From Actinomycetota bacterium (lineage in GTDB: Bacteria; Actinomycetota; Humimicrobiia; Humimicrobiales; Humimicrobiaceae), in contig JAQVEM010000001.1 of NCBI GenBank assembly GCA_028697935.1, forward strand, positions 2,475 to 42,417: a stretch of DNA of 39,943 nt. Direction: 5' to 3'. The notes under the pieces were generated by a model. It was not told the origin of the DNA, did not search any database, and saw only the letters and a list, made by a program, of their open reading frames with translations. Of the stretch, positions 9,168-31,658 are shown one piece after another (within the stretch, counting starts at the first letter, position 1; each line of letters opens with the position of its first letter). A program made the translations under genes and the position numbers.

Positions 9168-9802
9168 TTACATAGCACGCATAATATTCTTAGTAACTTC
9201 CTTATAATTGAATTCGTTGTAAACAAGTTCTTTACCCCTCATACCGATAAGTTTTGCCAGCTTCTTTCTATTAACTAGCGTTTCATTTTTCTTCTCTCTT
9301 AAAACCGGTATCTCTTGCAGATCCGGCTCCGGAAAATAACTCGCCGTCTGTGATTCCTCCAGTGCTTCTGAATGTGTCACCAGAAGTGCCTTCGCAAAAT
9401 ATCGGTTCTCGCGCCGAAATTTGAAAGCATAAAATAACCCTACAAAAATAAATAATTCCAGCACAACTGACCCTAAAATCGTTCCCAGCACTATCATCCG
9501 AGAATAATGTAACTGATTGAATATATACATTAGCCCGAAAATAACCACTATCGCATATATATCGCACTTAATTATCTGACTCGCCAACTTAGATGCCTTT
9601 CCCACTTTTTGTAAAGAATACTTCCCACCTAATATACCCACTACTATCCATATCCCGGTAAAGGCAAAGAGAAAACGCCACCACTGAAAATCTGATAGTA
9701 TCCTCCTTGTTCACTCTTTTACCTTTGCCGCAAAAAGAAAGGCAATGACTACAAGAAGGATGTCTAAAAGAAGATAATAAATGGTAGTTTGATTTTTTTC
9801 AT
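9168..9802 (-). pseudogene. Chimeric remnant: disrupted N-terminal membrane domain (polyprenyl-phosphate sugar-phosphate transferase-like) fused to a glycosyltransferase-type C-terminal tail
   Basis: An ATG at 9802 opens MKKIKLPFIIFF and hits a stop. A shifted frame continues LDILLVVIAFLFAAKVKE(stop)TRRILSDFQWWRFLFAFTGIWIVGILGGKY into the 157-aa ORF 9168..9641. That ORF has TM helices and ends in KKLAKLIGMRGKELVYNEFNYKEVTKNIMRAM, a typical GT4 C-terminus. The 9280-9420 segment is locally GC-richer and also carries an overlapping alternative-frame ORF. Confidence 0.5.
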
Positions 9803-9812
9803 ATATTTTTAA

Positions 9813-10555
9813 TCTCACGCAGATTGCGCTGATTCCGCAGATAAGTGCTCTCACAGATAACACAGATTTTAGTTTACCTCTCACAGATTACACGGATAAC
9901 ACAGATAAAAATTTATAATAATAAGATGTTAATATTAGAAGAATTACCGCACGCAGATTGCGCTGATTACGCAGATTTCTTTATTTATGTTAAGAATATT
10001 AAGCACAATCTAAAATTCTGAATTTATCATAGTATATATTATTAAAACCAAAACTGGGCTTAGACATTTCCTTTGCGATTTCAAGAGAGTTAAAATTATA
10101 ATATATTATCAATCATCCATCTGCGTTATCTGCAAAATCTAAGTACTGTATATTTTCATCTCACGCAGATTAAAGAATTTATAATTATAACATTAATAAT
10201 CATCTAACACTTCAAGTATTTATCGCAGTTTATAGTCATTGAAATAAATCATTTGGCTCAGATATTTTTTATTAGATTCCAATATAGTTAAAATTATAAT
10301 GTTTAATAATCATCCATCTGCGTTATCTGCGATATCTGCGTGAAATATAAATAATTATGTTACAGATAACACAGATTATTGTTTTGTAATAAAAAGAGTT
10401 TAAAGTACTTTACTATAAATTAGATCCTCTTACCTTTTTAATTAAGCTATGAATTTTAGGGTAGGTAAAATATAACAAATTTAGATTATTTTGAATTCTT
10501 ATTATAATTAAATCCAATCTGCGGAATCCGCGTTTTTATCTGCTTAATCCGCGGG
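9813..10555. repeat. Composite repeat region: phased 7-mer arrays alternating with core modules M5, M3, M4 and M1
   Basis: Plus-strand order (R = array as CRCAGAT, F = array as ATCTGYG; c = C/G-type, t = T/A-type). R-c 9813-9842, R-t 9848-9867, R-t 9878-9906, M5 9907-9947, R-c 9948-9976, M3 9977-10118, F-c 10119-10140. Then R-c 10159-10170, M4 10171-10315, F-c 10316-10345, R-t 10363-10376, M1 10397-10506, and a degenerate F-c 10517-10555. No ORF of 60 aa or more. Confidence 0.9.
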
Positions 10556-16056: not shown

Positions 16057-17386
16057 AGTAGTTAACTTTTTTATATTCAGGAAATTCTTCTGGATTAAAT
16101 AACAATTCTTTAGGAATTGGTTCATTTTCATAATAATGCTTATATACGGCTTTATAAATATTTACGAGTTTATCCATATTAGCTTTATTATCATATTCTC
16201 TTTCAATAAAAATCTTTGAATTGGTTAACATTTTTTCAACAAGTTCAGGTTCTTTGATCACCCTAAGCATATTATTTGCTAATGAATTAACATCGTCAAT
16301 ATCACTAATTAAAACTGCTTCACCATATTTATTAAGATAAGGAGTTCCTGTTGTCTTATAAGTAATAACCGGAAACCCAAGTATCATTGCTTCTATTATG
16401 GTACCAGATATAACATCAAGTTTAACAGGTAATACCGCATATTTTGCCTGTTGAATATGTTTATGCATATCTGATTGTTTGGGGAAATAGTCAGTAAATT
16501 CAATATTTTCTTTTAACTCTAATTCTTCTATCTTTTTTTCAAGATATTTCTTATAATCAATATCACATTTACCCACAATATTCAAGGTAACTTTTGGATA
16601 TTCTTTTTTTACTAGAGCTAACGCTTGAATTGTATCTTCTATACCTTTTTTCTTTGCCACACCGGCAGCAAAGAAAACAAAATCATATTTCTTTATTACA
16701 TTATTGATCTTTTGTATAGGTATATATGAGGAAGGACAGTAAAAAATAATTGCATTTTGATTATTTCGTAAAATCAAATCTCTATGAATAAGCCCTTCAC
16801 TACAAAAATATTTTATTTTTTGGTGTAACTTTAGTTCTAAATCCCATGTAAATTGATCTACTTCTCCACTGAACTTTTTCCTCAGAGGATTTGTATACAC
16901 CGTTTGAGCAGTAAGTATTAATGGTAAATTTGTAATATCCAAACCTGCGATGGAATAATATGGATTTTCAGAACCTATTAAATTAACAACATCTGGTTTT
17001 ATATCTTTTACAAAACCTTTTATTAAATATCTATTATAATAATATTTTGGTCTTTTTATTCTGAAAAGCTTTCTGAATAGTTTAATAACCATAATATCAT
17101 CATCAGGTCTAAAAAAGTGATAAAATATATTATTATATTTAAAACTATATTTGTTTTTTTTGAGATTCCTGTGAGGAGATATAATATGAATTTCTATTTC
17201 ATTGCGTTTCTCTAATTCGGAGATCAAATTAGTTATCCAGGGGGCAAAATCAAATACTTGTTTTTTTGGTTTGTTTAAAATTCTCCTAATATAATACTCA
17301 AAAGTTTTTTGGGATAAGGGTAACTTATCTCTAACCTCTGGATTAGAAAAATGACAGATTAAAGCTATTCTTAGTAGTCTTGCCAT
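16049..17386 (-). CDS. Glycosyltransferase, GT-B fold (family 4-like)
   Basis: 445-aa ORF with the C-terminal domain motif SGTIIEAMILGFPVITYKTTGTPYL and a typical two-domain length. Confidence 0.7.
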   Translation of the reverse strand: MARLLRIALICHFSNPEVRDKLPLSQKTFEYYIRRILNKPKKQVFDFAPWITNLISELEKRNEIEIHIISPHRNLKKNKYSFKYNNIFYHFFRPDDDIMVIKLFRKLFRIKRPKYYYNRYLIKGFVKDIKPDVVNLIGSENPYYSIAGLDITNLPLILTAQTVYTNPLRKKFSGEVDQFTWDLELKLHQKIKYFCSEGLIHRDLILRNNQNAIIFYCPSSYIPIQKINNVIKKYDFVFFAAGVAKKKGIEDTIQALALVKKEYPKVTLNIVGKCDIDYKKYLEKKIEELELKENIEFTDYFPKQSDMHKHIQQAKYAVLPVKLDVISGTIIEAMILGFPVITYKTTGTPYLNKYGEAVLISDIDDVNSLANNMLRVIKEPELVEKMLTNSKIFIEREYDNKANMDKLVNIYKAVYKHYYENEPIPKELLFNPEEFPEYKKVNYYD

Positions 17387-18063
17387 TAATACCTCCTAAA
17401 AAGTGACATAAAAGCTTCTGCATACATAACCCCAATTCTTGAACCCCGAAAAGCGGCTAAACCTTTTATCGCATAGACACTTCTGGGTAATGGGTCAGGC
17501 ATAATTTCAGTTTCATATAATTTTATAATTTCAATTTTTTTATCTATATAATCAGAAATATCTACAAATGTATTAGGTATAAAAGCATTTTCTAATAAAG
17601 CGGGAGCAAATTCGGTCTCTGAGAGTGTTTCATACATTAATATACTTTTTATAAAGGGATATCTATAATTTTTTGTGCAAGGATAAATTGCTTGAAATGA
17701 TATTCTATGATCAGACTGAACATCACTTCTATTAGGTATATATAAAATATCAGGTTTAATATTATATATAACTTCACTTATTTTACTTATTAATTCTGAC
17801 AGAGAAATAGTATCTATAATCCTTTCATAAAATTTTAAGTTTATAAAATTATTAAATTCATATGAGCTGACAACTTTACCTATAATCTTCTGAACTTTCT
17901 CTACGATTTCAGGACTAAAATCAAAAGGATGATTATTATCCATATCAGTAATATTTAACCAGTTGATTGTATCGCCGTTCGCTTTATGTTTGAGAATAGT
18001 TCCCCCACATCCTAAAGTTTCATCATCAGGATGTACCGAAATAAATAATACATTTCTTTTCAT
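17386..18063 (-). CDS. PIG-L / LmbE-family de-N-acetylase
   Basis: 225-aa ORF with the N-terminal signature LFISVHPDDETLGCGGT. Confidence 0.85.
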   Translation of the reverse strand: MKRNVLFISVHPDDETLGCGGTILKHKANGDTINWLNITDMDNNHPFDFSPEIVEKVQKIIGKVVSSYEFNNFINLKFYERIIDTISLSELISKISEVIYNIKPDILYIPNRSDVQSDHRISFQAIYPCTKNYRYPFIKSILMYETLSETEFAPALLENAFIPNTFVDISDYIDKKIEIIKLYETEIMPDPLPRSVYAIKGLAAFRGSRIGVMYAEAFMSLFRRY

Positions 18064-18293
18064 ATATTACTTAACCTCCATATAACTTATATAAAATTTA
18101 ATTTAATGCACATATTACTAATATGTTATAACCTTATCCTTCCTCCAAATACTATGCATTAATAAAGTTATGTTTTTATACATATAGTATATTTCTTTCT
18201 ATTGCCCCCAAAAGAATGGGAAAGTAAAGGTAATGTATCTTTATTTGGATAGAGGGAACGGATGAAATCAATGATTGGTTGGTATTCCATAGT

Positions 18294-18362
18294 CTACAAA
18301 TTAGTCCACCAATTTACACAAATTAAGGAGAATCCACAAATTTACACAAATTAACACGAATT
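18294..18362 (+). repeat. Phased 8-mer arrays, CACAAATT/CACGAATT dialect (two triplets), left flank of GxxExxY gene 1
   Basis: The sequence is ctacaaatta GTCCACCAATTTACACAAATT aaggagaa TCCACAAATTTACACAAATTAACACGAATT. The period is about 10 bp, and the array runs into the stop codon of 18362..18739. Confidence 0.85.
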
Positions 18363-18739
18363 TATAAGATGAGGCGTTTATATACTAAACTTGAGGATCC
18401 AAAGTTGACTAATAAGCCAACTCTAAGTTTGGTAGCCTTTAGGTAGTTTAATAATTGAGAGATATGATCGTTAGAGATTTCTGCAAGAGCTTTTACTTCA
18501 ACAATTATATTATCAAAGCATAAAAAATCGGCTTTATAACATTTATCTAGGGTTTTCCCTTTATATACTATACGAATATCCTTTTCTTTTTCAAAAGGTA
18601 TTCCTTGCTCTAAAAATTCAAGCATTAAAGATTCTTGATATACAGCTTCAAGAAATCCCGGTCCCAATTCCTTATGAACATTCATACACGCTCCAATTAT
18701 CTTGTAGCATTCTTCTTTATACATAATATCATTATTCAT
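18362..18739 (-). CDS. GxxExxY protein (PD-(D/E)XK nuclease-fold, PDDEXK_3-like), copy 1
   Basis: 125-aa ORF with the family motif GPGFLEAVYQ (G-x-x-E-x-x-Y) and a downstream D...EVK (ADFLCFDNIIVEVKA) typical of PD-(D/E)XK cores. Confidence 0.85.
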   Translation of the reverse strand: MNNDIMYKEECYKIIGACMNVHKELGPGFLEAVYQESLMLEFLEQGIPFEKEKDIRIVYKGKTLDKCYKADFLCFDNIIVEVKALAEISNDHISQLLNYLKATKLRVGLLVNFGSSSLVYKRLIL

Positions 18740-18750
18740 AATTCAAGTAA

Positions 18751-18770
18751 AATTGTGCAAATTGGTGGAC
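18751..18770 (+). repeat. Inverted partner of the 18304-18321 motif (aattgtgcaaattggtggac)
   Basis: Its reverse complement gtccaccaatttgcacaa matches gtccaccaatttacacaa (18304-18321) at 17 of 18 positions. It lies between the GxxExxY start and the stop of the upstream gene. Confidence 0.85.
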
Positions 18771-19747
18771 TATAAATTATATATTCCCGGTTTATATTTG
18801 GCTAAGTTTCGTGGATCGCTGAACCACTCTACTGTTTTTTCAAGACCTTCTCTTAAAGGATATTGAGGTTCATAACCAGTTAGTTCTTTTATTTTGGTGT
18901 TATCACATCTTAATCTGAAGACTTCAGAATGTTCGGGTCTTAACCTTTGTTCTTCAACTATAAGATTTGCATCACTGTGCATTATATCTTTAATCAATGC
19001 AAATAATTCTTTTATAGAAATCTCATCATTTGAACCGATATTTACGGTTTCACCAATTGCTTTATCGCATTTAGCTAATAAAATAAAGCCATTACAAATA
19101 TCTTTCACATAATTGAAATCACGAGTTGGAGTAGTATCACCAATCTTAATTTCTTTATTTCCACTAGCAATTTGAGTGATAATTGTCGGAATCACCGCCC
19201 TGGCAGATTGACGAGGACCATAAGTATTAAATGGACGAACTATAGTAACAGGAAGTTGATAAGCATAATAAAAGCTCGTAGCAATCGCATCAGCACCAAT
19301 TTTACTGGCACTATATGGTGATTGAGGTTGCAATGGATGTTTTTCATCTATGGGAACATATTGTGCGGTACCATAAACTTCGCTGGTAGAAGTTACTAAT
19401 ATTCTTTTGACCTTACAATCTTTAGCTGCTTGACAAATATTCAAAGTGCCTTTGATATTAGTATCTATAAAGCTTTGTGGAGCAATATATGAATAGGGAA
19501 TAGCAATCAATGCAGCTAAGTGGAATATAACATCTATCCCCTTACAAATTTCTCTACAATATGCTGGATCTCTTACATCTCCACAAACAATCTCTAAATT
19601 AGAAGTTTGTTGAATATCTTCCAGCCATCCCCAGTAATTAAAAGAATTATATTGAGCTAAAGCTCTAACATCATATCCTTCCGCTAATAAAGATTCTGTT
19701 AGATGTGACCCAATAAATCCATCAGCTCCCGTAACTAAAACTTTCAT
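18770..19747 (-). CDS. NAD-dependent sugar-nucleotide dehydratase/epimerase (extended SDR, LegB-like 4,6-dehydratase type)
   Basis: Rossmann motif [12 protein letters not shown], then [11 protein letters not shown], and a catalytic YSASK. I use the ATG at 19747, which is preceded by AAGGAAG. The tracked GTG extension (VDRRKED) reads into the repeat motif. Confidence 0.75.
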   Translation of the reverse strand: MKVLVTGADGFIGSHLTESLLAEGYDVRALAQYNSFNYWGWLEDIQQTSNLEIVCGDVRDPAYCREICKGIDVIFHLAALIAIPYSYIAPQSFIDTNIKGTLNICQAAKDCKVKRILVTSTSEVYGTAQYVPIDEKHPLQPQSPYSASKIGADAIATSFYYAYQLPVTIVRPFNTYGPRQSARAVIPTIITQIASGNKEIKIGDTTPTRDFNYVKDICNGFILLAKCDKAIGETVNIGSNDEISIKELFALIKDIMHSDANLIVEEQRLRPEHSEVFRLRCDNTKIKELTGYEPQYPLREGLEKTVEWFSDPRNLAKYKPGIYNL

Positions 19748-19762
19748 ATCTTCCTTTCTTCT

Positions 19763-20073
19763 GTCCACGAATTTTCACAAATTAGCACGAATTATTATAA
19801 TTATCTAAATTTATTATAATCCAATTTTGCTATTTAATTAATTCAACTTTGCCAAATCTCTCAAAACCCTTATTCCCCTTGACTTACATTGAGGACAGGT
19901 AACGACGAGTATGTCGTTTATTCTGGAAAGTATCCATCCGCTCTCTGTCCTTACCCTCTCAACATTCTCAATACATGTAAAGCTTCAGCACGCTCCGACT
20001 ACACAAATTTTTCAATCCTCTAATCCCCTTTCAACCTTCTCTATTTCGTGTTAATTTGTGCAAATTCGTGGAC
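19763..20073. repeat. 311-bp non-coding element bounded by ~31-bp terminal inverted repeats of the CACGAATT dialect (MITE-like)
   Basis: The left end is GTCCACGAATTTTCACAAATTAGCACGAATT (19763-19793). The reverse complement of the right end (20041-20073) is GTCCACGAATTTGCACAAATTAACACGAAATAG, with about 28 of 31 identical. The 247-bp core has no ORF and contains a GC-richer hairpin segment. Confidence 0.7.
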
Positions 20074-20226
20074 TAAGTTAGAGGTTTGTTGAATATCTTC
20101 CAGCCATCCCCAATAATTAAAAGAATTATATTGAGCTAAAGCCCTAACATCATATCCTTCTGCTAATAAAGATTCTGTTAGATGAGACCCAATAAAACCA
20201 TCAGCACCCGTAACTAAAACTTTCAT
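20074..20226 (-). pseudogene. Duplicated 5' fragment (codons 1-51) of the SDR gene 18770..19747
   Basis: 153 bp align with 19595-19747 with 8 mismatches by my count, and the encoded 51 aa are identical. The reading frame then runs into the repeat (tail [10 protein letters not shown], tracked ORF 20041..20226). Confidence 0.9.
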
Positions 20227-20336
20227 TTATTCAATCCTTTATATTATTCCATAAAAAAAATAGTGGTTAATTTATAAAGTATTTATTAAGTTTTTTTGTA
20301 TCAATTAATAAATCTTTTACTGTTCATAATGTAAGC

Positions 20337-21152
20337 CTATTTGGTATTATTAAACATAGTTTTAATTTGTTTTTGGATATCCGCTTTCAACTGCAATCTA
20401 TTTTGTTCCAGCTCATATTCCCCTGCATCTATTAAACTTTCTAAATAACTATTTATTTTATTAATTTCTTCTTTCATATCAATTTCTTTAATTACTTCTT
20501 CATATGTATCTTTATATTTTCTAAAATCCCTATTTATTATTACCATTTTGGAACCAAGTCTAAAATGTTCAGATAAAATTAATTTCCCTTTTTCTAACCT
20601 TGAGACACCACCAAAACCATATTTTATCTTTTTATGGGCAATTTTTTGGCACAAATATTCAATAATACTACCTATTAATGGTTCATATAAAAAATCCAAT
20701 CCCATCCCTATAGATAAATCGTTTAATCCAATATGAACAGCATCAATTCCATCTACATCAAGAATATCATCTACCCTTACTAGTGCTTGTGGAGTTTCAA
20801 GCAATAGGTATTTCATTGCTCTTTCACCAACAAGCTCAACAAAAATCTCCACTTCCTTCACTGTTTTAAACATAGGTAACATTATAATGTCAGCTTTTCT
20901 AGCAATTGATTCTTCTATTTCATTTTCTGTGCCTTCATAAATCGGATTAATTCTGACTAAACATTTTGATTTAGTAAGACATTTTTTTATTTTATCAATA
21001 TCTTCAATACTATGAGCAGAAATAACAGTATTTAACCCATTTTGTCTTTCTTTTTTTCCAATAATTTCAAGATCGACCATAATATCATCTATGCCACAAT
21101 ATTCAAAATATTGTGCTAATTTCACCTCGTTTGTTATAGATATATATTCCAT
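20337..21152 (-). CDS. HpcH/HpaI aldolase / citrate-lyase-beta-like family protein
   Basis: 271-aa ORF with LLLETPQALVRVDDILDVDGIDAVHIGLNDLSIGMGL, resembling the conserved E...D-x-(I/V)-x-IG-x-(N/D)-DL block of this TIM-barrel family. Confidence 0.6.
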   Translation of the reverse strand: MEYISITNEVKLAQYFEYCGIDDIMVDLEIIGKKERQNGLNTVISAHSIEDIDKIKKCLTKSKCLVRINPIYEGTENEIEESIARKADIIMLPMFKTVKEVEIFVELVGERAMKYLLLETPQALVRVDDILDVDGIDAVHIGLNDLSIGMGLDFLYEPLIGSIIEYLCQKIAHKKIKYGFGGVSRLEKGKLILSEHFRLGSKMVIINRDFRKYKDTYEEVIKEIDMKEEINKINSYLESLIDAGEYELEQNRLQLKADIQKQIKTMFNNTK

Positions 21153-21164
21153 ATTTAATTACCT

Positions 21165-22088
21165 CTATATTTTTATTAACCAATCATTATATTTAGGTTT
21201 TATTCCTCTAACTATTTCAAAATACAACTCTTTCAATGCTTTGGTAATACTCCCAACTTCGCCATTATTAACTAGATATTGATCTACACTTAATATGGGA
21301 AGAATTTCCACTGAAGTTCCAACAAAAAATATTTCGTCTGCAATATATAATTCAGTTCTATCAATCTCTCTTTCTTCTACTTCAATATCAAGCTCATATT
21401 TAGCAATTTTAATTAATGTATCCCTTGTAATACTTTCTAAGATAGAAGCTGTGATAGGTGGTGTAATTAATTTATGATTTCTTAGACAGAATAAACAGGC
21501 ACCTGGTCCTTCGGCAACTTTTCCATCTCTATTCAGAAAGATAGAAGAATCATAACCGTTCATTGTTGCTTCCAATAAGGCAAATCTACTATTTATATAA
21601 TTAGCTCCTGCCTTAATCCTGGGTGGAATATCAAATTCGCTAATTCTTTCCCAAGAAGAAATGCAACAGTTTATACCAGTTTTGTCTGAATATACTCTTC
21701 CTTTGGGATAAGGATATATTACAATTCCTATAGGGCTTAAAGAGCTCCAACTACCTTCTTCATCCAAAAACATACATATTTTCACATATAAATCTTCATT
21801 ATATTTATTTGCTTTAATAACATTTCTTAAATTATATATTATATATTCTTTACTAATCTTGTTGTCAATTTGAAATTTTATTAATTTTGATGATTGGAAC
21901 AATCTATTTATATGATCATTTAACCTGAAAGCATATAAGGAATTTTCCTCTTCATTATTATAACATCTAATTCCTTCAAAAACATTTATTCCATATTGCG
22001 CACTGGTATTCATAATATTAATTTTAGCTTCCTTATAAGGAATTATATCTCCTTTAAACCAAATTAACCTATTATTTGTGTTATTCAT
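21165..22088 (-). CDS. Class IV (branched-chain / D-amino-acid type) PLP aminotransferase
   Basis: 307-aa ORF. The N-terminus FKGDIIPYKEAKINIMNTSAQYGINVFEGIRCY and later GKVAEGPGACLFCLRNHKLITPP are typical of fold-type IV aminotransferases. Confidence 0.7.
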   Translation of the reverse strand: MNNTNNRLIWFKGDIIPYKEAKINIMNTSAQYGINVFEGIRCYNNEEENSLYAFRLNDHINRLFQSSKLIKFQIDNKISKEYIIYNLRNVIKANKYNEDLYVKICMFLDEEGSWSSLSPIGIVIYPYPKGRVYSDKTGINCCISSWERISEFDIPPRIKAGANYINSRFALLEATMNGYDSSIFLNRDGKVAEGPGACLFCLRNHKLITPPITASILESITRDTLIKIAKYELDIEVEEREIDRTELYIADEIFFVGTSVEILPILSVDQYLVNNGEVGSITKALKELYFEIVRGIKPKYNDWLIKI

Positions 22089-22102
22089 ATTTATACTCCT
22101 AT

Positions 22103-23338
22103 TTATTCAAAATTATAGGTTTGGAAAATGTATTCAAATGTTTCAGCCTCTTTCAAAATATCAAATCCATCATTTCTTAAAGCAATGATGGGAACATTAG
22201 GAAAAATAAAAGGTGGTTTAAACACAATAGAATAGGACCCCACATTGTCAAAAACAAGATAATCACCTATACAAAGCTCTCCAGAATAATTTTTATAAAG
22301 ATAATCATCTTCTATGCAAGTATATCCCGATATGTCAATAGCATCATAATAATTTCTTTTTGTTTTATTTGTATCTATACTATATACAGATAGAGGCAAA
22401 TTTAGTTTAGTTGTTAACCGATGATAATTAATCTTTGATCCAGAGGTAATTGCAATATGTTTATCTTTAATAGTTTTAATCTCAATTACTTTACATACAT
22501 ATTGCATCGTGTTGGCTACTAAAGCTGTGCCTGGTTCTAATATTAATATTGGTTTATAATAACTTTGTGAAAAGTTATCCTGAAATTTTGTTGCTATTAT
22601 ATTGGCATAATCTTGATAATCAGCAACAGTATAGCCAAGTTGTTGTTTTATTTTGTCGTCTAATTTACCGCCTAATCCACCTCCTAAATCTATATAAAAT
22701 GGCTCATTATAATCAACAACCCTTTCATATATATCAAGCATTCTATTAACTTTTTCTTCATATACTTTTAAATCTCTATAAGGGAAATGACAATGTATCA
22801 TATTAAATCTGATATTTTTTATATTTTTTAACTCTTCTACTATTTGGAAAAATGACTCTTTGCTAGTATCAAATCCAAATCTGGAAAGTGGTGTATCATT
22901 TAACTCAAAATTACACCTCACTCCTAAATTAAAAACTTTACCCGGATATTTACTCGCAATCTTTTTTAGTAGAATAAATTCTGAATAATTATCTAAATTA
23001 ACTATACTCCCTTTAGTTAAATACTTTTCTAAAGATTTCTCTGGTTTATAAGGTCCATTTACAATGATATTTTCAGGATTAACTCCTACTTTAATAGCCA
23101 AATCATATTCCATTTCTGACACAACCTCTGCATATCCTCCCTCGTTATTAATTATCTTACATAATGCTGGAATATAATTAGTTTTATATGAATATGCGAT
23201 TTTTATCTTAGGGTAAATCAAAGTAAAAGCATCATAAAATTCATAAAAATTTGTTCTAAATTTTTCTATATCTATAATGTACCAGGAATCCCCTATTAAT
23301 TTTTCAATTTTATTTAATAAATTATAGTTTAATTTCAT
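22103..23338 (-). CDS. PLP-dependent decarboxylase, Orn/DAP/Arg decarboxylase family (fold type III)
   Basis: 411-aa ORF with the PLP-lysine block IAYSYKTNY, the glycine loop DLGGGLGG, EPGTALVA, and C-terminal CIEDD. Confidence 0.75.
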   Translation of the reverse strand: MKLNYNLLNKIEKLIGDSWYIIDIEKFRTNFYEFYDAFTLIYPKIKIAYSYKTNYIPALCKIINNEGGYAEVVSEMEYDLAIKVGVNPENIIVNGPYKPEKSLEKYLTKGSIVNLDNYSEFILLKKIASKYPGKVFNLGVRCNFELNDTPLSRFGFDTSKESFFQIVEELKNIKNIRFNMIHCHFPYRDLKVYEEKVNRMLDIYERVVDYNEPFYIDLGGGLGGKLDDKIKQQLGYTVADYQDYANIIATKFQDNFSQSYYKPILILEPGTALVANTMQYVCKVIEIKTIKDKHIAITSGSKINYHRLTTKLNLPLSVYSIDTNKTKRNYYDAIDISGYTCIEDDYLYKNYSGELCIGDYLVFDNVGSYSIVFKPPFIFPNVPIIALRNDGFDILKEAETFEYIFQTYNFE

Positions 23339-23405
23339 ATATTATTTTTACTTCTATTATTAGGCTGATTAAAAGAGCAGTATTTTATAATTATTATTGT
23401 GTAAA

Positions 23406-23489
23406 AGATGTGACCCAATAAATCCATCGGCTCCCGTGACTAAAACTTTCATATCTTCGTTTCTTCTGTCCACGAATTTTCACAAATTT
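23406..23489 (-). pseudogene. Third copy of the SDR gene 5' end (about 15 codons plus 37 bp of upstream leader including the GTCCACGAATTTTCACAAATT motif)
   Basis: About 81 bp match 19703-19783 with 3 mismatches. Two are synonymous, and one is in the Shine-Dalgarno region (aaggaag to aacgaag). Confidence 0.85.
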
Positions 23490-23501
23490 CCTAATTAAAC
23501 T

Positions 23502-23528
23502 TTCTCAACCTTCTCAACCTTTACAATA
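23502..23528 (+). repeat. Short phased array, TTCTCAACC dialect (period 9)
   Basis: The sequence is ttctcaacc ttctcaacc tttacaata. Related tctcaac/tctcaat pairs lie at 19957-19972, and a tttcaacct lies at 20029-20037. Confidence 0.6.
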
Positions 23529-23565
23529 ACATTCAAATACTATGAACATTTAAATAATCTCTTAA

Positions 23566-25110
23566 TTAAGGTGCTACCGGTGTTGAAGAATGTCGTATTT
23601 GAAGTTTACGAATCCCTTGAATTATATAGCGCTTAATAGATTGACGCTCATAAAGGTCCATACCCAGATAATATATTGAAATAAAAAGAATTATTTCAGA
23701 GACAAGACTGATTAGAATAAAACGTAACCATCCATAAGAAAAGAAATTTTTAATTATAAAAAACGGAACAACGGATAAACTTACAAGTATTATTTTAAAA
23801 GTAGAATTTTTTAAAAATTCCATAACATCATAATTTAATATAGCTTTTAAAAGAATTAGATCTGTTATAAAGGTCAATGTTGCAGTAAGAAGATAAATAT
23901 AGCCAATAATATAAGGAGGATAACCTGCTTTAAATGCAAAATATGCTAAAGGTAGACCTAAAAGAGTAATGCTACTATATGTTATTTTAAATAGAGCTAT
24001 ATTTCCAGAGGCGTGAATGAAGGGACCAATGCCGTATTGACTAGCAAAAATAACAGATTTTAAAAGCATAGCTTGAACAAATATTGTAGTATACTCGGGA
24101 ACTTCTTTTAACCAAATATTAAGGATGAAATCCGTTTCTAAAAGGATGGGAAGCATAGGGATTGCCATTAAAAAGAAAGAATATTTAGATGCTAAAATTA
24201 CTAAATTACTGGCTCGTTTGTGTTCACCAGCGCTATAACTTTTTGTTATCTGGGGAACAACTGCTTGCCCTAAACTCTGAGCAAAAGATCTCACTATAGA
24301 ATTAACTTGATTAGCTATACCGAAACTGGCATTTAATATGGTTCCAAAAAAACGATTAATAATAATAGCTGCACCTTGATGTTCTCCAACTACGGCTGCA
24401 ACTTCAATTGAATTCAAACCTGTAAAACCCAGCATTTCTTTATACTTTTTCCAGTCTTTAGAAAAATTCCATTTAACCTCATTAAAATATGTTCTGAAAC
24501 AATAAATTATGTAAAGTATAAGTCTTAAAGCATGTATTATAGTTAGAAATATTACATATAATCTTAAATGATTATAAGGAAGATAAATTAGAGCTATAGA
24601 TAATAATAAAATCAGTATCTTATTTAATATTTCAATGGGAACGGTTATTGAAAATTTCTCTTTGGCTACCAATAAACCTTGAAATGGGGTCTCAATAATA
24701 ATGCAGATAGTAATGAGTGTGGAAAAAAGGAAAGTAAAGACTGCGTCATTCAATTTGCCTTCAGGAACATTAAGATAATTATAAATATAATATAATCCAA
24801 CGGTTAAGGAGAGAAAAAGAAATATTATACATAAAAGTAAGTGTATGGATAAACTTATATTAAATATATTATTTACATTACCATCAGGTTTCCCTTCTTC
24901 AAAGGCAATAAACCTATAAGTTGTTGTTATCATTATAGTATTTACAAATGCCATTAAAGAAACCACACCACCAACAACATTATATAGCCCATAATCAGAT
25001 ACCCCCAAAGCCATAAGTAAAAATCTGGAGGTAAAAAAACCAGCTACCATTGACACTACAAGACGAATGTAAAGATAAATACTGTTCTTTATTATAAGTT
25101 TATTGGACAT
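23566..25110 (-). CDS. wzx: Oligosaccharide flippase (Wzx-type, MOP superfamily polysaccharide biosynthesis protein)
   Basis: 514-aa ORF with about 12-14 hydrophobic segments. The N-terminus IKNSIYLYIRLVVSMVAGFFTSRFLLMALGVSDYGLYNVVGGVV is typical of Wzx/RfbX-like proteins. Confidence 0.75.
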   Translation of the reverse strand: MSNKLIIKNSIYLYIRLVVSMVAGFFTSRFLLMALGVSDYGLYNVVGGVVSLMAFVNTIMITTTYRFIAFEEGKPDGNVNNIFNISLSIHLLLCIIFLFLSLTVGLYYIYNYLNVPEGKLNDAVFTFLFSTLITICIIIETPFQGLLVAKEKFSITVPIEILNKILILLLSIALIYLPYNHLRLYVIFLTIIHALRLILYIIYCFRTYFNEVKWNFSKDWKKYKEMLGFTGLNSIEVAAVVGEHQGAAIIINRFFGTILNASFGIANQVNSIVRSFAQSLGQAVVPQITKSYSAGEHKRASNLVILASKYSFFLMAIPMLPILLETDFILNIWLKEVPEYTTIFVQAMLLKSVIFASQYGIGPFIHASGNIALFKITYSSITLLGLPLAYFAFKAGYPPYIIGYIYLLTATLTFITDLILLKAILNYDVMEFLKNSTFKIILVSLSVVPFFIIKNFFSYGWLRFILISLVSEIILFISIYYLGMDLYERQSIKRYIIQGIRKLQIRHSSTPVAP

Positions 25111-25126
25111 AAGTTCTTCTTATATA

Positions 25127-26120
25127 CTCTCACAGATTGCACAGATGACACAGATAAGGTCTCTCACAGATTACACAGATAACACAGATAAAAATTTATA
25201 ATAATAGGTTGTAAACATTAGCAGGATTACCTCACGCAGATTACGCTGATTTCGCAGATAAGTTCTCTCACAGATAGCACAGATATAATTTATAATTAAA
25301 AATATGTTCATTTACAATGCATTAATGTTTGTAGCTAAATTTTATAGCTTTTAAATTGATCAATTAGCTCAATTTATCTCACGCAGATTACGCTGATTCC
25401 GCAGATATGGTCTCTCACAGATTACACAGATATCACAGATTATAATTATAATAAGATTGTTAAAACTGTATCAATTAATTAAAATTGCGTCTTATCGGCA
25501 TATATTAACATTCCCCTTGAATTAATTTTTAAAATCAGAATAAGTTCTTAGAGCATTACCATTCTCTATTCTAAAAAACTAATAAGGGCTTTTTTAAATA
25601 ACCGTTAGTATAAACCATGTTTCTATTCCAGATAAAATTATCATATCCATCAATTTCATTATAAGTGTTTTTAAAGTAATTCTGAAGTTAATTCATTATG
25701 ACGGTAAGAAATAGCACAATTTACATTATACATTAATTCTTTTAATTTCACTATAAATCCTTATCTGTGATATCTGTGATATCTGTGTTATCTGTGTTAT
25801 CTGTAACATAATTTTTTATATTTCACGCAGATATCGCAGATAACGCAGATGGATGATTATAAATACATTATAATTTTAACTATATTGAATCTATTAAAAA
25901 ATATCTGAGCCAAATGATTTATTTCAATGACTATAAACTGCGATAAATACTTGAAGTGTTAGATGATTATTAATGTTATAATTATAAATTCTTTAATCTG
26001 CGGAATCAGCGTAATCTGCGTGCAGTAATTCTTCTAATATTAACATCTTATTATTATAAATTTATATCTGTGTTATCTGTGCTATCTGTGAGAGACCTCA
26101 TCTGCGATATCTGCGTGAAA
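25127..26120. repeat. 1-kb ORF-free composite repeat region between wzx start and the next gene's stop
   Basis: Left half, all R orientation: R-t 25127-25155, R-t 25161-25189, M5-like 25190-25229, R-c 25230-25259, R-t 25265-25284, inverted M2 25285-25376, R-c 25377-25406, R-t 25411-25440. A unique 322-bp centre spans 25441-25762. Right half: F-t x5 25763-25805, R-c 25821-25850, inverted M4 25851-25994, F-c 25996-26023, inverted M5 about 26024-26065, F-t 26066-26096, F-c 26100-26120. Confidence 0.9.
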
Positions 26121-27058: not shown

Positions 27059-27078
27059 TATTTATTCCTCAATTTATA

Positions 27079-27501
27079 CCTCACGCAGATTACGCTGATT
27101 ACGCAGATTTCTTTATTTATAATTTGAGTGTCAAACATAATCTAAAGTTCTGAATTTATCTATGAATATTGCCAATAATATCAATTAATAGTTGGTTTGG
27201 AGATTTCTTTAACGAATTCAAGAGAGCTAAAATTATAAAGCATTATCATTCATTTATCTGCGTTATCTGCGATATCTAAGCACAGTATATTGTCATCTCA
27301 CGCAGATTACGCTGATTTCGCAGATTAAAGAATTTATAATAAGAATTATAATCATAATCTAAAATCCCAAAGTATTTTCTTATAATTTTGTAACTATACT
27401 CAATTATATGGCCTAAAGCTTTTTAAAGATTTCACTACAGTTAGATTAAATTATTAAACATAAAAACATCCATCTGCGTTATCTGCGCTATCTGCGTGAA
27501 A
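27079..27501. repeat. Composite repeat region (R-c, M3 copy 2, F-c, R-c, diverged M4-like core, F-c)
   Basis: R-c 27079-27107, M3 27108-27255 (alignable to 9977-10118), F-c 27256-27277, R-c 27296-27325, a core 27326-27471 whose ends resemble M4, and F-c 27472-27501 (atctgcgttatctgcgctatctgcgtgaaa). Confidence 0.85.
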
Positions 27502-27511
27502 CATAACTAAT

Positions 27512-27907
27512 TTATTGAAGATCTGGATGATGAATATCATTTGCTACTCTTATTATATTGTCTTTGATTGAATCAGTATTGAAATTGATCAGAAAACCTA
27601 AAGGTTTCTTTGCTATTTTTAGATAAGTTATCAATTGCTTATAATGAACTGGTAATAATGTATCAACAGATTTCAATTCGAGGATTACTTGATCATTTAT
27701 TAAAAAATCAAGTCTGTACTGAATTCCAAGGTTAACACCTTTGTATAGAACTTCTATGGGAACCTGATTTTCTACTTTCAGACCTCTATTATTTAATTCA
27801 ATTAAAAGAGCTTGCGCATAAATATTTTCAAGCAAACCCGGACCTAATATATTGTAAACCTCAAAAACTGAACCTCTGATTTGATAACTTATATCATTCA
27901 AATTCAT
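27512..27907 (-). CDS. GxxExxY protein (PD-(D/E)XK nuclease-fold), copy 2
   Basis: 131-aa ORF with the motif GPGLLENIYAQ and a downstream LDFLINDQVILELKS (D...ELK). Confidence 0.85.
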   Translation of the reverse strand: MNLNDISYQIRGSVFEVYNILGPGLLENIYAQALLIELNNRGLKVENQVPIEVLYKGVNLGIQYRLDFLINDQVILELKSVDTLLPVHYKQLITYLKIAKKPLGFLINFNTDSIKDNIIRVANDIHHPDLQ

Positions 27908-27915
27908 TGTATTTT

Positions 27916-28225
27916 TCTCACGCTGATTACGATAATTCTATTTTTCATTTTATTTCACGCAGATTACGCTGATTTCGCTGATTTTTTTACTTATAATAAG
28001 AATATTCAAAATAATCTAAATTTGTTATATTTTACCTACCCTAAAATTAATAGATTAATTAAAAAGGTAAGAGGAGCTAATTTATAGTAAAGTACTTTAA
28101 ACTCTTTTTATTACAAAACATTAATCTGTGATATCTGTGCAATCTGTGAGAGGTGAAAAAAATCTGTGTTATCTGTGCAATCTGTGAGAGACCTTATCTG
28201 CGTTATCTGCGAAATCTGCGTGAGA
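27916..28225. repeat. Composite repeat region (degenerate R, R-c, inverted M1, two F-t units, F-c)
   Basis: Degenerate tctcacgctgattacgat 27916-27933, R-c 27953-27982 (tttcacgcagattacgctgatttcgctgat), inverted M1 27991-28103, F-t 28122-28153, F-t 28162-28193, F-c 28194-28225. The tracked plus-strand ORF 27881..28087 simply reads through these repeats. Confidence 0.9.
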
Positions 28226-28230
28226 TATCA

Positions 28231-28677
28231 CTAAATTAGGGCAGAAAGTTTTCGCCAATCACGAACCTTTTCTAGATATCCTGCTTGTATTGCTGATGCT
28301 ATAGAACGACAGGGTAGATTTTGTTCAACTATATCTTCTTTGCTTAAGGTTTTCAAATCCAGATCAGGATAATCTTTCAAGGTAGCTCGCATAATCTTCA
28401 AAAATACATTGGGCCAGGTGCTCATTGGTTTCCCTTGAGAATGATATTCACGATTATATCTCTGTATATATATTCTACAATCTTCTTTGTATTCTTCACT
28501 TATAATAATTCTTTTGGCAAAATCAAATATTTTTTTCATAATTGCATTAGAGACACTTGGTTTAGGAATCACTGTTCTTCTTGAAATATACTTATCTAAA
28601 TGAGAATTATAATATGTAACATACTTTTCTTCATTCCCATCAAGTCTTGGAATATTCATTTTTACTTTTGGCTTCAT
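28231..28677 (-). CDS. Hypothetical protein (no family recognised)
   Basis: 148-aa ORF with a good GAGGAG Shine-Dalgarno 6-7 nt upstream of the ATG. It is basic and hydrophilic, and I see no recognisable motifs. Confidence 0.5.
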   Translation of the reverse strand: MKPKVKMNIPRLDGNEEKYVTYYNSHLDKYISRRTVIPKPSVSNAIMKKIFDFAKRIIISEEYKEDCRIYIQRYNREYHSQGKPMSTWPNVFLKIMRATLKDYPDLDLKTLSKEDIVEQNLPCRSIASAIQAGYLEKVRDWRKLSALI

Positions 28678-29518: not shown

Positions 29519-29548
29519 AAAAAGCCACCTAAATTCCCGAAAAATAGT

Positions 29549-29917
29549 TTAATGGGCAATTCTCTGGAATTCTAATTTTGCCACATTGCCAAAGTTTAAG
29601 ATATATCCTACTTTGAGCCCTGTTGCACTTAGATAATTTATTATTTGTGCGCAATGCATTGAATGAATTATATTACAAGCTTTGAGCTCCAGTATAATTT
29701 TACCTTCTACAATAATATCAGCAATATAATCTCCAACAATTTGATCTCTATAAAAAACTGGTATAGGAACCTGATAAACATAACTAATACCTTGATATTT
29801 AAATTCTACACATAAAGCTCGTTCATATACTTTTCCCAAATATCCGGCACCCAGCTCTTTGTGAACAGCAATTGCACAACCAATAATTCTATCACTCAGC
29901 TCCTTCTCATATATCAT
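29549..29917 (-). CDS. GxxExxY-family protein (PD-(D/E)XK fold), copy 3, with the signature Glu replaced by Gly
   Basis: 122-aa ORF that aligns with copies 1 and 2. Its motif reads GAGYLGKVYE (G-x-x-G-x-x-Y), while the D...ELK block (ADIIVEGKIILELKA) is retained. Confidence 0.8.
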   Translation of the reverse strand: MIYEKELSDRIIGCAIAVHKELGAGYLGKVYERALCVEFKYQGISYVYQVPIPVFYRDQIVGDYIADIIVEGKIILELKACNIIHSMHCAQIINYLSATGLKVGYILNFGNVAKLEFQRIAH

Positions 29918-29950
29918 AAATTTTGGGCTTTCCCTTTCTTATTTTAAAAA

Positions 29951-30424
29951 TTATATAACCTTTTCGGTGTCTTCGGTGCTATCGGTGGCTAATATTTTTG
30001 TATTGTAAATTACCTTTCGGTGCTCTAGGTGTTTTCGGTGGCTAATAAAAATAAACAGCAGAGTCAATATTGCTCCAAAGAGATTCGCTATCATATCCAT
30101 AGGATTAAAGGTTCTATAAGGCAAGAGATATTGTAAACATTCACTGATTATAGCAGAACCGCCTACAATTAGTATATATTTCAAAACAGATTTATGATTA
30201 AAAATTGGATTGCCTTGCCTTTCCGCTATCAAATATAAAGGGATAAAGACAAGAAAAGATACAAAATGAATAAGATAATCCAATCTAAATTCAAATATAG
30301 ATTTGTGAATGATACGATTTAAATCATCTCCCAAGGGAATAACATTCATTGCTAAAACTATAATCAGCCATCCCCAAAATAACCATCTTGCCCCATTTGC
30401 CATCCTTTTATCTTGTATCATCAT
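29951..30424 (-). CDS. VanZ-like family membrane protein
   Basis: 157-aa ORF with 4 TM-like segments. It has DYLIHFVSFLVF and SECLQYLLPYRTFNPMDMIANLFGAI, resembling VanZ-family blocks. The last ~30 codons are encoded by the TTCGGTG arrays. Confidence 0.6.
   Translation of the reverse strand: MMIQDKRMANGARWLFWGWLIIVLAMNVIPLGDDLNRIIHKSIFEFRLDYLIHFVSFLVFIPLYLIAERQGNPIFNHKSVLKYILIVGGSAIISECLQYLLPYRTFNPMDMIANLFGAILTLLFIFISHRKHLEHRKVIYNTKILATDSTEDTEKVI
29961..30043 (+). repeat. Two phased triplet arrays, TTCGGTG dialect, separated by a 22-bp spacer
   Basis: 7-mers ttcggtg / ttcggtg / atcggtg start at 29963, 29972 and 29981. 7-mers ttcggtg / ctaggtg / ttcggtg start at 30016, 30025 and 30034. The period is exactly 9, and each triplet ends in GGCTAAT. 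Confidence 0.9.
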
Positions 30425-30434
30425 TATATTTTTT

Positions 30435-30542
30435 TCTCTGTGCTCTCAGTGGTTAAATTTTTGTCGGTGTATTCGGTGTTCTCGGTGGCTAATATTTTTG
30501 TATTGTAAATTACTTTTCGGTGCTCTTGGTGTCTTCGGTGGC
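30435..30542 (+). repeat. Second copy of the TTCGGTG double-array module plus a ctctgtg/ctcagtg pair
   Basis: 7-mers start at 30435 and 30444, at 30462, 30471 and 30480, and at 30515, 30524 and 30533 (period 9). The internal spacer gctaatatttttgtattgtaaattac is the same as at 29988-30013. Confidence 0.9.
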
Positions 30543-31658
30543 TTCTTCTTTTTTCTCAAACCATTCATCAAGTACTTTTACAATTCTGCTGGCTGTCTTT
30601 CCATCCCAATATTTAGGTATTTTCCCCTGTTTTACATTCCCTTCAATAATTTCCCTGGCACTATTAACGATACTTTCCACATTCAAGTCAACAAGATGAT
30701 TGGTACCTTCTGTAACGGTTATCGGTCTTTCCGTATTTTCTCGTAAGGTTAAACAAGGAACACCAAAATAGGTTGATTCCTCTTGAATACCTCCCGAATC
30801 TGTTAGGATAAATTTTGCATTCATCTCTAACTTGAGAAAATCTAAATATCCTAATGGCTCAGTAATAATAAGATTTGAACTAGTATTTAAAATAGATGAT
30901 AAACCAAGTTCATAAATATTTTTCCTCGTTCGGGGATGCATAGGAAAGATAATCTTTATTTTTCTCCCTATGATTTCCAAAGAGGTTAGCAACATTTTTA
31001 AACCTTCATACTCATCAACATTAGATGGTCTATGTAATGTTACTAAGGCATATTTTTCATTAGGTACCATATTTAATTGGTGAAAAATATTAGAATTTTC
31101 AGCTTTATCTTTATGTGCGACCAGAGAATCAATCATAATATTTCCCACAAAATAAATTTTACCTGGCTCTATACCCTCTTTTTCCAAATTTTTATTTGCA
31201 TCCAGCGAAGGTGTTAATAAAATATCGGATATTCTATCTGTTAGAACTCTATTTATCTCTTCAGGCATTCTATCATCATAACTTCTTAGACCCGATTCAA
31301 GATGAGCTACAGGAATATATAATTTCTTAGCCACTAAAGCACAAGCAATTGTAGAATTAACATCACCTGCAACAATAACTAAATCAGGTTTATCCTCTGA
31401 TAGAATCAAATCTTCATATCGTTCTATTATCCTGGCTGTCTGTTTCCCCTGTGTGCCTGAACCTACATTTAAATAGGCAGATGGCTCAGGCATAGCCAAA
31501 TCATTAAAAAAGAGTTTGGACATTTGTTCATCATAGTGCTGTCCTGTATGTATTATCTGGGGTTCATATCTATTACTATACAACGATAATTTTCTATAAA
31601 GAGGTGCCATTTTCATAAAATTAGGTCTTGCACCCACTATCAAATGAATTAATCTCAT
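30510..31658 (-). CDS. wecB: UDP-N-acetylglucosamine 2-epimerase (non-hydrolysing, WecB family)
   Basis: 382-aa ORF with VGARPNFMKMAPL, HTGQHYDEQMS, GDVNSTIA and HLESGLRSYDDRMPEEINR. The last ~11 codons (EEATEDTKSTEK) are encoded by the repeat array. Confidence 0.85.
   Translation of the reverse strand: MRLIHLIVGARPNFMKMAPLYRKLSLYSNRYEPQIIHTGQHYDEQMSKLFFNDLAMPEPSAYLNVGSGTQGKQTARIIERYEDLILSEDKPDLVIVAGDVNSTIACALVAKKLYIPVAHLESGLRSYDDRMPEEINRVLTDRISDILLTPSLDANKNLEKEGIEPGKIYFVGNIMIDSLVAHKDKAENSNIFHQLNMVPNEKYALVTLHRPSNVDEYEGLKMLLTSLEIIGRKIKIIFPMHPRTRKNIYELGLSSILNTSSNLIITEPLGYLDFLKLEMNAKFILTDSGGIQEESTYFGVPCLTLRENTERPITVTEGTNHLVDLNVESIVNSAREIIEGNVKQGKIPKYWDGKTASRIVKVLDEWFEKKEEATEDTKSTEK

Follow-up and report, generated by a model that had tools for sequence, protein, structure and literature searches.

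Introduction

Gene remnants at recombination junctions have been described for the O-antigen clusters of Escherichia and Salmonella, the cps locus of Streptococcus pneumoniae and the K loci of Klebsiella. Homology-facilitated illegitimate recombination, together with microhomology-mediated deletion, provides a second comparison, and the Rickettsia palindromic elements, which are found in frame inside coding genes, provide a third. Here we analyzed a 39,943-nucleotide (nt) window of contig JAQVEM010000001.1 (assembly GCA_028697935.1), in which the 5' end of one gene occurs three times. The gene encodes a LegB-type nicotinamide adenine dinucleotide (NAD)-dependent 4,6-dehydratase. One copy is intact (copy 1) and two are fragments (copies 2 and 3), which lie on either side of a block of three genes for a decarboxylase, an aminotransferase and an aldolase. 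Overall, we read the three LegB 5' ends as probable scars of separate rearrangements, two or three at the least, between LegB-bearing loci that have diverged within one lineage.

In several respects the locus resembles the remnants in O-antigen and capsule loci: the intact allele of a conserved sugar-pathway gene has truncated copies as neighbors, the polysaccharide locus is hypervariable, relatives have alternative arrangements, and the conserved genes are mosaic. It differs from them in that three copies of one 5' end are found within 4 kb, two of them undecayed and with synonymous differences only, in that one of the junctions falls within a repeat element's terminal array, and in that the phylum is new. 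The scars record an ordinary kind of event, well documented here, and will not surprise specialists in O-antigen and capsule evolution. What the locus provides is a clean, internally controlled case of the rebuilding of a surface-polysaccharide locus in an uncultured, globally distributed phylum of anaerobic digesters. LegB appears to serve as portable homology, and the rearrangements leave stumps that can be dated, the fresh ones showing synonymous changes only and the old ones being visibly decayed.

Three 5' ends of LegB

All positions given are window coordinates, and all genes of the studied region are on the minus strand. The intact gene (18770-19747) scores 502.9 bits against the NCBIfam model TIGR04180, for which the cut-off is 475, and matches the Pfam families Epimerase and GDP_Man_Dehyd; its codons 1-51 occupy 19595-19747. 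Copy 2 (20074-20226) consists of codons 1-51 of a second LegB allele and differs from copy 1 at 8 of 153 nt, in codons 7, 10, 14, 22, 28, 38, 48 and 50. All eight differences fall at third positions and are synonymous, and the two 51-residue peptides are identical. The probability that eight random substitutions are all synonymous is 5e-6 to 2e-5. Copy 3 (23406-23488) is shorter and consists of LegB codons 1-15 plus 2 nt (23406-23452), a leader (leader 1; 23453-23467) and a 21-nt motif, R (23468-23488). It matches 19701-19783, the corresponding part of copy 1, at 80 of 83 nt. Two of the three differences are synonymous changes within the 47 coding nt. The third, a G>C change that weakens the Shine-Dalgarno region (AAGGAAG to AACGAAG), is the only sign of decay in this copy. 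A repeat search returned copies 2 and 3 as families of their own (D7 and D9), and all copies are in direct orientation within 3.9 kb. The first-pass annotation had reported the first 51 codons as repeated with eight differences and an unchanged peptide, and about 15 codons plus leader as repeated with two synonymous changes and one Shine-Dalgarno change; exact alignment agrees on both counts, gives the span of the latter as 23406-23488, and finds neither non-synonymous nor frameshifting differences between copies 1 and 2.

The sequences upstream of the start codons fall into two types. Copies 1 and 3 are preceded by an inverted R and leader 1 (AGAAGAAAGGAAGAT, with a Shine-Dalgarno sequence; 19748-19762 at copy 1, between R and the LegB start codon). 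The leader of copy 2 (leader 2; 20227-20336) is unrelated: it is the spacer between the aldolase gene and LegB and carries no R. Copy 2 keeps a Shine-Dalgarno sequence, and its frame reads through into R to give an open reading frame (ORF) of 61 amino acids (aa; 20041-20226) in which Pfam recognizes only the N terminus of Epimerase. Judged from its sequence, copy 2 probably still gives rise to a peptide of no use, a 61-aa stump of a Rossmann fold whose tail comes from the repeat. Both fragments are homologous to the intact gene and have lost the rest of the ORF; they are non-functional leftovers with no evident function. The region is present in contigs of metatranscriptome libraries, in which carry-over of DNA is possible. 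Silent cassettes for antigenic variation were also considered and rejected, as the copies encode the same peptide.

Divergence of the copies and mosaic structure of LegB

The direction of the changes was read from related LegB genes. Copies 1 and 3 have a derived A at positions 21, 30 and 42 in common with the related locus L081, where copy 2 keeps the T common among the outgroups. Private changes are found at positions 66 and 114 in copy 1 and at position 144 in copy 2. Derived synonymous changes on both the copy-1 and the copy-2 lineages imply that they accrued while both were working genes, and copies 1 and 2 appear to have diverged as functional alleles before truncation. The proposal of the first-pass annotation that the fragments come from functional alleles rather than from decay in place is thus upheld, both by the eight of eight synonymous differences (P ~1e-5 under neutral decay) and by the changes on both lineages. 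Purely synonymous differences are what would remain if the alleles had worked up to the moment of truncation and decay had since had little time to set in.

Stumps from nearby served as controls. LegC' (18168-18290) is a decayed 5' stump of about 41 codons of a LegC-family aminotransferase gene, found by tblastn with residues 1-41 of the LegC of locus L089 (E = 7e-10). Of its 41 residues, 17-22 are changed, including the conserved PLHEP segment, and relatives carry a full LegC there. The stretch that follows LegC' has no homologue in any fetched locus. Similarly, in the downstream LegB of contig L161 the start reads ATT, a stop codon is present and 18 of 51 residues differ. A third control, the orf447-like stump at 5856-6260, contains several stops. 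These stumps, decayed in place, look unlike copies 2 and 3, which supports divergence of the latter as functional alleles.

By its identity profile, LegB appears to be a recombination mosaic, with recombination inside the gene being common. Copy 1 and L081 are 94% identical over nt 1-90, 74-80% over nt 136-400, 91-97% over nt 496-720 and 68-71% over nt 721-978, and copy 1 is 84-88% identical to L083, L084 and L170 over the last 200 nt. One of the mosaic boundaries is found by the highly conserved codons 32-44, not far from the cut of copy 2. The earlier suggestion of homologous recombination at a conserved gene start therefore holds as far as LegB acts as a recombination handle, but not as a single exchange that inserted the block.

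Motif R and element E

Motif R (GTCCACGAATTTTCACAAATT) occurs six times in the window, compared with an expectation of zero. One copy adjoins the truncation point of copy 2 (20073/20074), and others precede the leader of copies 1 and 3 and bracket an ORF of the GxxExxY family (18362-18739). In gene orientation the order is copy 2, R, 269 base pairs (bp), inverted R, leader 1, LegB, R, the GxxExxY ORF and two inverted copies of R. The 311-bp stretch between copy 2 and leader 1, element E (19763-20073), contains no ORF and is bounded by R copies in inverted orientation (19763-19783 and 20053-20073). In the predicted RNA fold, the R arms pair in one long hairpin (-85.7 kcal/mol, z = -4.9). E-like elements of 140-700 bp lie upstream of LegB in relatives, and the interior of E is absent or different in other strains.

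The small-ORF element 3' of LegB (18304-18770) has R at 18750-18770 and two inverted copies of R at 18332-18352 and 18304-18324. Its GxxExxY (PDDEXK_3) ORF matches PF13366 (E = 1.6e-40) and TIGR04256 (E = 4e-44), and LegC' lies directly after its last R. The order LegB, R, GxxExxY, R is also found in L081, L082, L085-L089, L161 and L167.

Arrangements in related loci

Related loci were collected in three ways. A metagenome scan with LegB gave ten loci of the same lineage (L081-L090), with 83-86% protein identity and a guanine-plus-cytosine (GC) content of 30-33%. A genome contig scan with LegB gave relatives of at most 79% identity, the three closest Cloacimonadota loci checked (L001, L003 and L004) having 44-45% GC; it pointed to the phylum but was of no help with the arrangement. 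Contigs L161-L172 were found through homologues of the aldolase. On contigs that reach far enough, the canonical order is a nucleoside triphosphate (NTP)-transferase gene, R - E - inverted R, leader 1, LegB, a small-ORF element, LegC and NeuD. R and leader 1 precede LegB in all of L081-L090, L161 and L167. The small-ORF element after LegB encodes GxxExxY in eight of the ten metagenome loci and 23S_rRNA_IVP in L083 and L084. None of the ten has a second LegB start, so the triplicated arrangement is not identical in all relatives, a point on which the first-pass annotation had staked its reading.

The contigs found through the aldolase are arranged differently. L161-L166 carry wzx, the NTP-transferase gene, LegB, an IVP ORF, a LegC stump of 11 codons and the three-gene block; after the block come an inverted R, leader 1, a decayed LegB, GxxExxY and a 148-aa ORF. 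At the 3' end there is a PIG-L gene in L162 and ORFs with a uridine diphosphate (UDP)-glucose dehydrogenase domain in L161, L163 and L165, while L164 and L166 end earlier. L167 reads LegB, GxxExxY, 11-codon LegC stump, block, inverted R, leader 1, LegB, GxxExxY. On L161 as on L167, one LegB lies on each side of the block, and the two are 89-90% identical to each other within each contig. L170, which has the closest aldolase (92%), carries the aminotransferase and aldolase genes, a short spacer and a full LegB without R. It aligns unbroken with window positions 21354-20085, through leader 2 into copy 2, at 88.6% identity; leader 2 is shorter in L170 and has no match in other relatives. In L168, L169 and L172, the aldolase gene is followed directly by PIG-L, within which L169 and L172 end. 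In L168, PIG-L is followed by genes for a GT4 protein, a hexapeptide transferase and a CBS-NTP-transferase and by a 425-aa ORF, which is the operon of the window from 18063 downwards (L168 2725-8240 is collinear with window 18060-12535).

These arrangements place a full-length gene at the position of each fragment. The place of copy 3 is taken in L161 and L167 by a complete upstream LegB, which suggests that copy 3 is what remains of that gene. For copy 2, the counterpart is the complete LegB of L170, with which it has the R-less spacer in common, and this suggests a stump of the aldolase-adjacent allele. The window from 20073 to about 18170 (E - LegB - GxxExxY - LegC', 1.9 kb) is collinear with the canonical locus, and this stretch is absent from L168 and L172. 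On these alignments, the variable piece among the relatives appears to be the patch E - LegB - GxxExxY - LegC', not the block.

The first-pass annotation had proposed two further checks, and neither favored its view of the block as inserted cargo. No relative was found in which wzx is directly followed by LegB without the block. Among relatives with contigs long enough to show it, all but one have the NTP-transferase gene upstream of LegB, across the E/R repeat; the upstream neighbor is the aldolase gene in L167 and L170, and the contig of L085 is too short. In composition, the block shows a GC content at third codon positions (GC3) of 0.17-0.185, and both GC3 and codon usage match those of its neighbors.

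The copy-2 junction

The copy-2 junction was compared with its presumed parental sequences. The left end of E in relatives has one more outer repeat unit (...GTCCACGAATTTA|GTCCACGAATTT...), and LegB codons 48-52 read ...TCT AA(T/C) TTA GAG.... In the window, the join reads ...TCTAACTTA|GTCCACGAATTT. With the parental sequences inferred from relatives, the microhomology at the join is TTAG, 4 nt exact, or 6 of 7 nt over AAYTTAG versus GAATTTAG. The join falls inside the repeat array, at TTAG, and shows no target duplication. Taken together, the sequences on the two sides indicate that the copy-2 junction would be an illegitimate, microhomology-guided join rather than a homologous one. It could stem from a deletion between the resident LegB and a downstream E - LegB, or from import of a patch of the canonical locus.

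At copy 3, BLAST matched the junction spacer between the fragment and the decarboxylase start codon (23339-23405) to none of the fetched loci. By visual comparison only, ~45 nt at its proximal end look similar to the leader of the decarboxylase gene in L161 and L167.

A probable series of separate rearrangements

The explanation that we consider likely is that the three 5' ends were left by separate events. The ancestral arrangement would have been LegB - x - LegC' - block - LegB. An order of LegB - block - LegB would best be explained by a single-crossover (Campbell-type) or duplicative insertion with LegB as the shared homology. Copy 3 would then be the remnant of the upstream LegB, after a deletion that began at codon 16 and stopped some 50 nt short of the decarboxylase gene. 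Copy 2 would be the remnant of the aldolase-adjacent LegB allele, as in L170, whose codon 51 would have been joined to the terminal repeat array of E, via the short microhomology, by deletion or by import of the canonical-locus patch. This illegitimate join would have replaced the aldolase-adjacent LegB from codon 52 on by E - LegB - GxxExxY - LegC'.

Two known mechanisms may fit in part. As in homology-facilitated illegitimate recombination, one side of the patch is homologous (LegB) and the other would be joined at 4-7 nt of microhomology; in contrast to it, the join lies inside the region able to pair, and part of the gene is duplicated rather than replaced. As in Campbell-type integration, direct repeats of the shared homology flank the block, as full LegB in L161 and L167 and as stumps in the window. 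Unlike the products of such integration, the flanking LegB copies are 10% diverged, and the block borders upstream on a LegC stump, which means that at least one end is not a clean homologous crossover.

Several points weigh against the series of separate rearrangements. Its direct precursor is found in no sampled genome, the order and number of events are inferred, and no relative has the block - LegB - ... - E - LegB tandem that a simple deletion model needs. Copies 1 and 2 encode the same peptide where relatives differ by 4-9 residues, so partial gene conversion between them may have occurred. The three differences of copy 3 are too few to tell allele divergence from decay in place. An exact microhomology of 4 nt in AT-rich DNA is only mildly improbable, at a few per cent by a rough chance estimate. 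Lastly, a break that coincides closely with the end of an element also fits an element-driven event.

Alternative explanations

We consider such an event unlikely. In it, the R-bounded E, or a composite of E, LegB and GxxExxY, would have been mobile or been severed at the repeats that end it, and would have entered a resident LegB at codon 51; the PD-(D/E)XK-type GxxExxY protein may have done the cutting. The position of the break next to R speaks for it, as do the high copy number of R-type and related repeats and their variability between strains, their presence in frame at one LegC site in different lineages with absence in L004, the alternation of two kinds of small-ORF elements at the 3' flank of LegB, and the D...ExK motif in all three GxxExxY proteins of the window. 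Against it, the join shows no target-site duplication, and the rest of the interrupted LegB, from codon 52 on, does not come after the element. The array at the join lacks the outer unit seen in relatives, which places the break inside the array and not at its tip. Moreover, no transposase or integrase was found in the window, and no GxxExxY activity in the literature searched.

A broader proposal, which we put forward tentatively, is that the R units and the CGCAGAT, CACAGAT, CACCGA and GGTTGAGAA families form one undescribed class of selfish elements, whose ends are preferred break-and-join points that shuffle surface-polysaccharide modules in Cloacimonadota. Its members may have in common inverted terminal arrays of 9-11-nt units with an optional ORF for a GxxExxY nuclease or a four-helix 23S_rRNA_IVP protein, and may reside in polysaccharide operons, in the spaces between genes, as well as in frame within LegC. 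On this view, the junction of copy 2 would be an instance of such breaking and joining.

The explanation given by the first-pass annotation was one homologous cassette exchange at the LegB start that put the block between wzx and LegB and left copies 2 and 3 as scars. It, too, seems improbable compared with separate rearrangements. The block is indeed bracketed by LegB sequences in the window and, in L161 and L167, by complete LegB genes; LegB 5' ends are also prone to recombination, as the drop from 94% identity after nt 1-90 against L081 illustrates. A double homologous crossover, however, does not leave stumps in duplicate. Besides having a leader unlike that of the other copies, copy 2 aligns collinearly with L170, and the join at which it stops is non-homologous. 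At its upstream edge in L161 and L167, the block is bordered by a remnant of LegC instead of LegB, and in L168 and L172 it passes into the downstream operon with no LegB in between. The lack of a compositional difference and of any wzx-LegB adjacency among the relatives found points the same way. The two fragments thus do not mark the ends of a single exchange with the block as cargo, since their origins are separate, copy 3 deriving from the upstream LegB and copy 2 being L170-like.

That the LegB start was duplicated in tandem on the spot and the copies then diverged where they lay is very improbable. The direct orientation of the copies within 3.9 kb agrees with it, but the eight of eight synonymous differences (P ~1e-5), with derived states on both lineages, effectively refute it; the upstream leader of copy 2 is unrelated and common to L170, and stumps that did decay in place look different.

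Independent contigs bear on whether the arrangement is real. Logan contigs from run X1 extend over 19754-20131 and over 20113-23489 and show 0 differences. The block and the copy-2 and copy-3 junctions are also present in runs X2, X3, X9 and X12 and in runs X4, X5 and X13 from RNA libraries. Runs from other studies (landfill, activated sludge and digesters) contain the block with both junctions at ~99% identity, with the interior of the 311-bp element E different or missing. The exact 61-aa product of the copy-2 ORF, its repeat-encoded tail included, is called in two other assemblies (L174 and L175). The arrangement is not an assembly artefact. An assembly chimera that stitched strain variants of one LegB start in series is conceivable, the source by all signs being a metagenome in which several strains co-exist and repeats abound. 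It is nonetheless barely credible: both junctions are crossed by independent Logan contigs, with 0 differences in X1 and a few in X2, X3 and X12, and the copy-2/R junction recurs in an ENA assembly. Logan joints at 18063->23496, 19804->23496 and 23522->18766 were examined as candidate empty sites and rejected, their 24-33-nt sides falling in multi-copy repeats.

Repeat elements and their small ORFs

A by-product of the analysis may matter more than the scars: inverted-repeat elements with ORFs of the GxxExxY or 23S intervening-sequence (IVS) type punctuate the operons, and one of them lies at a breakpoint. Their genomic setting suggests a testable function for the GxxExxY and 23S_rRNA_IVP families. 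The E/R units have features of MITEs (miniature inverted-repeat transposable elements), namely terminal inverted repeats, small size and many copies. Presence and absence vary, in that the LegC loop site holds an R-type insert, a CTCAACC-type insert or none among relatives, and GxxExxY and 23S_rRNA_IVP elements alternate 3' of LegB. No target-site duplication was found among the flanks of the R copies, whose outer flank is often one more repeat unit, and profile scans of the one 40-kb window found no transposase or integrase for R elements. An integron cassette array was rejected: the same kind of scan found no integrase or tyrosine recombinase in the window, and R, on reading, has no GTTRRRY core, a point on attC sites that concerns R alone, as no attC search was made.

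The kin of E can be compared with MITEs, with repetitive extragenic palindromic (REP) sequences and bacterial interspersed mosaic elements (BIMEs), with Neisseria Correia elements and with Rickettsia palindromic elements. Like these, they are short, bounded by inverted repeats, multi-copy, intergenic within operons and predicted to fold into hairpins; like the Rickettsia elements in particular, they occur in frame inside a gene, LegC. Unlike all of these, their ends are arrays of 9-11-nt units, several sequence families have one architecture, and the ORF-bearing versions encode GxxExxY (PD-(D/E)XK) or 23S_rRNA_IVP and no transposase, with no target duplication.

Element E is not a known RNA, as Rfam gave no match in 18000-24000, its only match being a tRNA at the window end. 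A scan for promoters and terminators showed no enrichment of the former and none of the latter, so E as a promoter source is without support. In the literature searched, no function was found for GxxExxY/PDDEXK_3 or 23S_rRNA_IVP, and nothing on repeats in Cloacimonas. GxxExxY has no solved structural relative in the Protein Data Bank (PDB) and belongs to no PADLOC defence system.

Small ORFs bracketed by inverted arrays of 2-4 iterated 9-11-nt units are found at several sites, each ORF with its own repeat family. In the window they lie at 18304-18770, 27464-27982 and ~29520-29992, and in relatives at L161 3343-3773 and L084 2257-2685. The family is CACGAATTT/CACAAATT, CGCAGAT, CACCGA or GGTTGAGAA. 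The bracketed ORFs are of the GxxExxY/PDDEXK_3 type at the three window sites and of the 23S_rRNA_IVP type in relatives. The three window GxxExxY proteins are only 33-40% identical pairwise, with the D...ExK motif, as read from the sequence, kept in all three. ORF-less arrays of like architecture (CACAGAT, CGCAGAT and CACCGA units) fill most intergenic spaces of the window, at 1-460, 9800-10500, 25112-26115, 27074-27512, 27948-28236 and 29960-30545, and form direct and inverted repeats of 50-136 nt (for example 10362-10496 versus 28004-28138, at 96%).

LegC itself is a further site. One loop site of its coding sequence holds in-frame, translated inserts of different repeat families in different relatives (L089 11961-12042, L087 11973-12120, L085 2702-2889, L088 ~4949-5058, and the LegC genes of L081 and L084), while L004 has no insert. 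The R type reads VHEFAQIN...KFVEICGQ and the CTCAACC type QPSQPSQ. In L081-L089, the GTG start of LegC lies within the last six bases (GTGGAC) of the inverted R, so the repeat supplies the start codon. ORFs of 148-149 aa adjoin the small-ORF elements (window 28231-28677, L161 8812-9258, L167 5469-5918 and L089 13811-14257). Those of the window, L161 and L167 have no credible Pfam match, and that of L089 has no NCBIfam match; these ORFs may be a third kind of small-ORF passenger.

Gene content of the locus

The window has a GC content of ~29%. By profile searches, it codes for glycosyltransferases, a wzx-like flippase, CapE/CapF-like enzymes, a NeuC-like epimerase and the three GxxExxY proteins, and it is a surface-polysaccharide locus of the legionaminic-acid type. 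The exact LegB protein has no entry on record by identical-protein look-up. The window has no complete LegC, no NeuD-type acetyltransferase and no other DegT-type aminotransferase, only the decayed 41-codon LegC stump, and LegB is not accompanied there by LegC and the other legionaminic acid genes. Because this gene context is incomplete, the substrate of the window LegB is uncertain. It may serve another pathway here, perhaps with the three-gene block, and LegB and the block occur together in L161, L167, L170 and L171.

The block (20337-23338), assigned by Pfam and NCBIfam, consists of genes for an HpcH-type aldolase (20337-21152), a class IV aminotransferase (21165-22088) and a pyridoxal phosphate (PLP)-dependent decarboxylase (22103-23338), and is kept in L161-L172 at 69-89% DNA identity. 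The wzx-like gene (23566-25110), with weak MatE and WZX_like matches, gives no alignment with the wzx of L161 at the DNA level. Between it and copy 3 lies a spacer (23489-23565) with iterated GGTTGAGAA units, a second repeat family; such units also flank the 23S_rRNA_IVP ORFs in L161 and L084 and are present in the E elements of relatives. The gene for a PIG-L family deacetylase (17386-18063; Pfam) is the first gene of the operon that lies directly 3' of the aldolase gene in L168, L169 and L172.

Stumps of conserved genes are found elsewhere too. LegC 5' stumps have 41 codons in the window (18168-18290), 44 in L086 (6774-6905) and 11 in L161 and L167, upstream of the decarboxylase gene, and the junction of LegC codon 11 with the block is common to L161 and L167. 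A 5' stump (5856-6260) related to orf447 (3158-4501) covers residues 7-143, is decayed with several stops and 53% protein identity, and sits between a PGA_cap gene and a glycosyltransferase gene.

The RNB-domain ribonuclease encoded near the window end is 70-75% identical to proteins named Candidatus Cloacimonas or Syntrophosphaera. This points to an uncultured Cloacimonadota bacterium of low GC content as the host, in keeping with the kinds of sample (landfill, activated sludge and digesters). A tRNA gene (39842-39914, minus strand; 65.5 bits) overlaps the start of its TTG-start ORF (37860-39872), and since the homologues have 653 aa, the true start of the ribonuclease lies further in.

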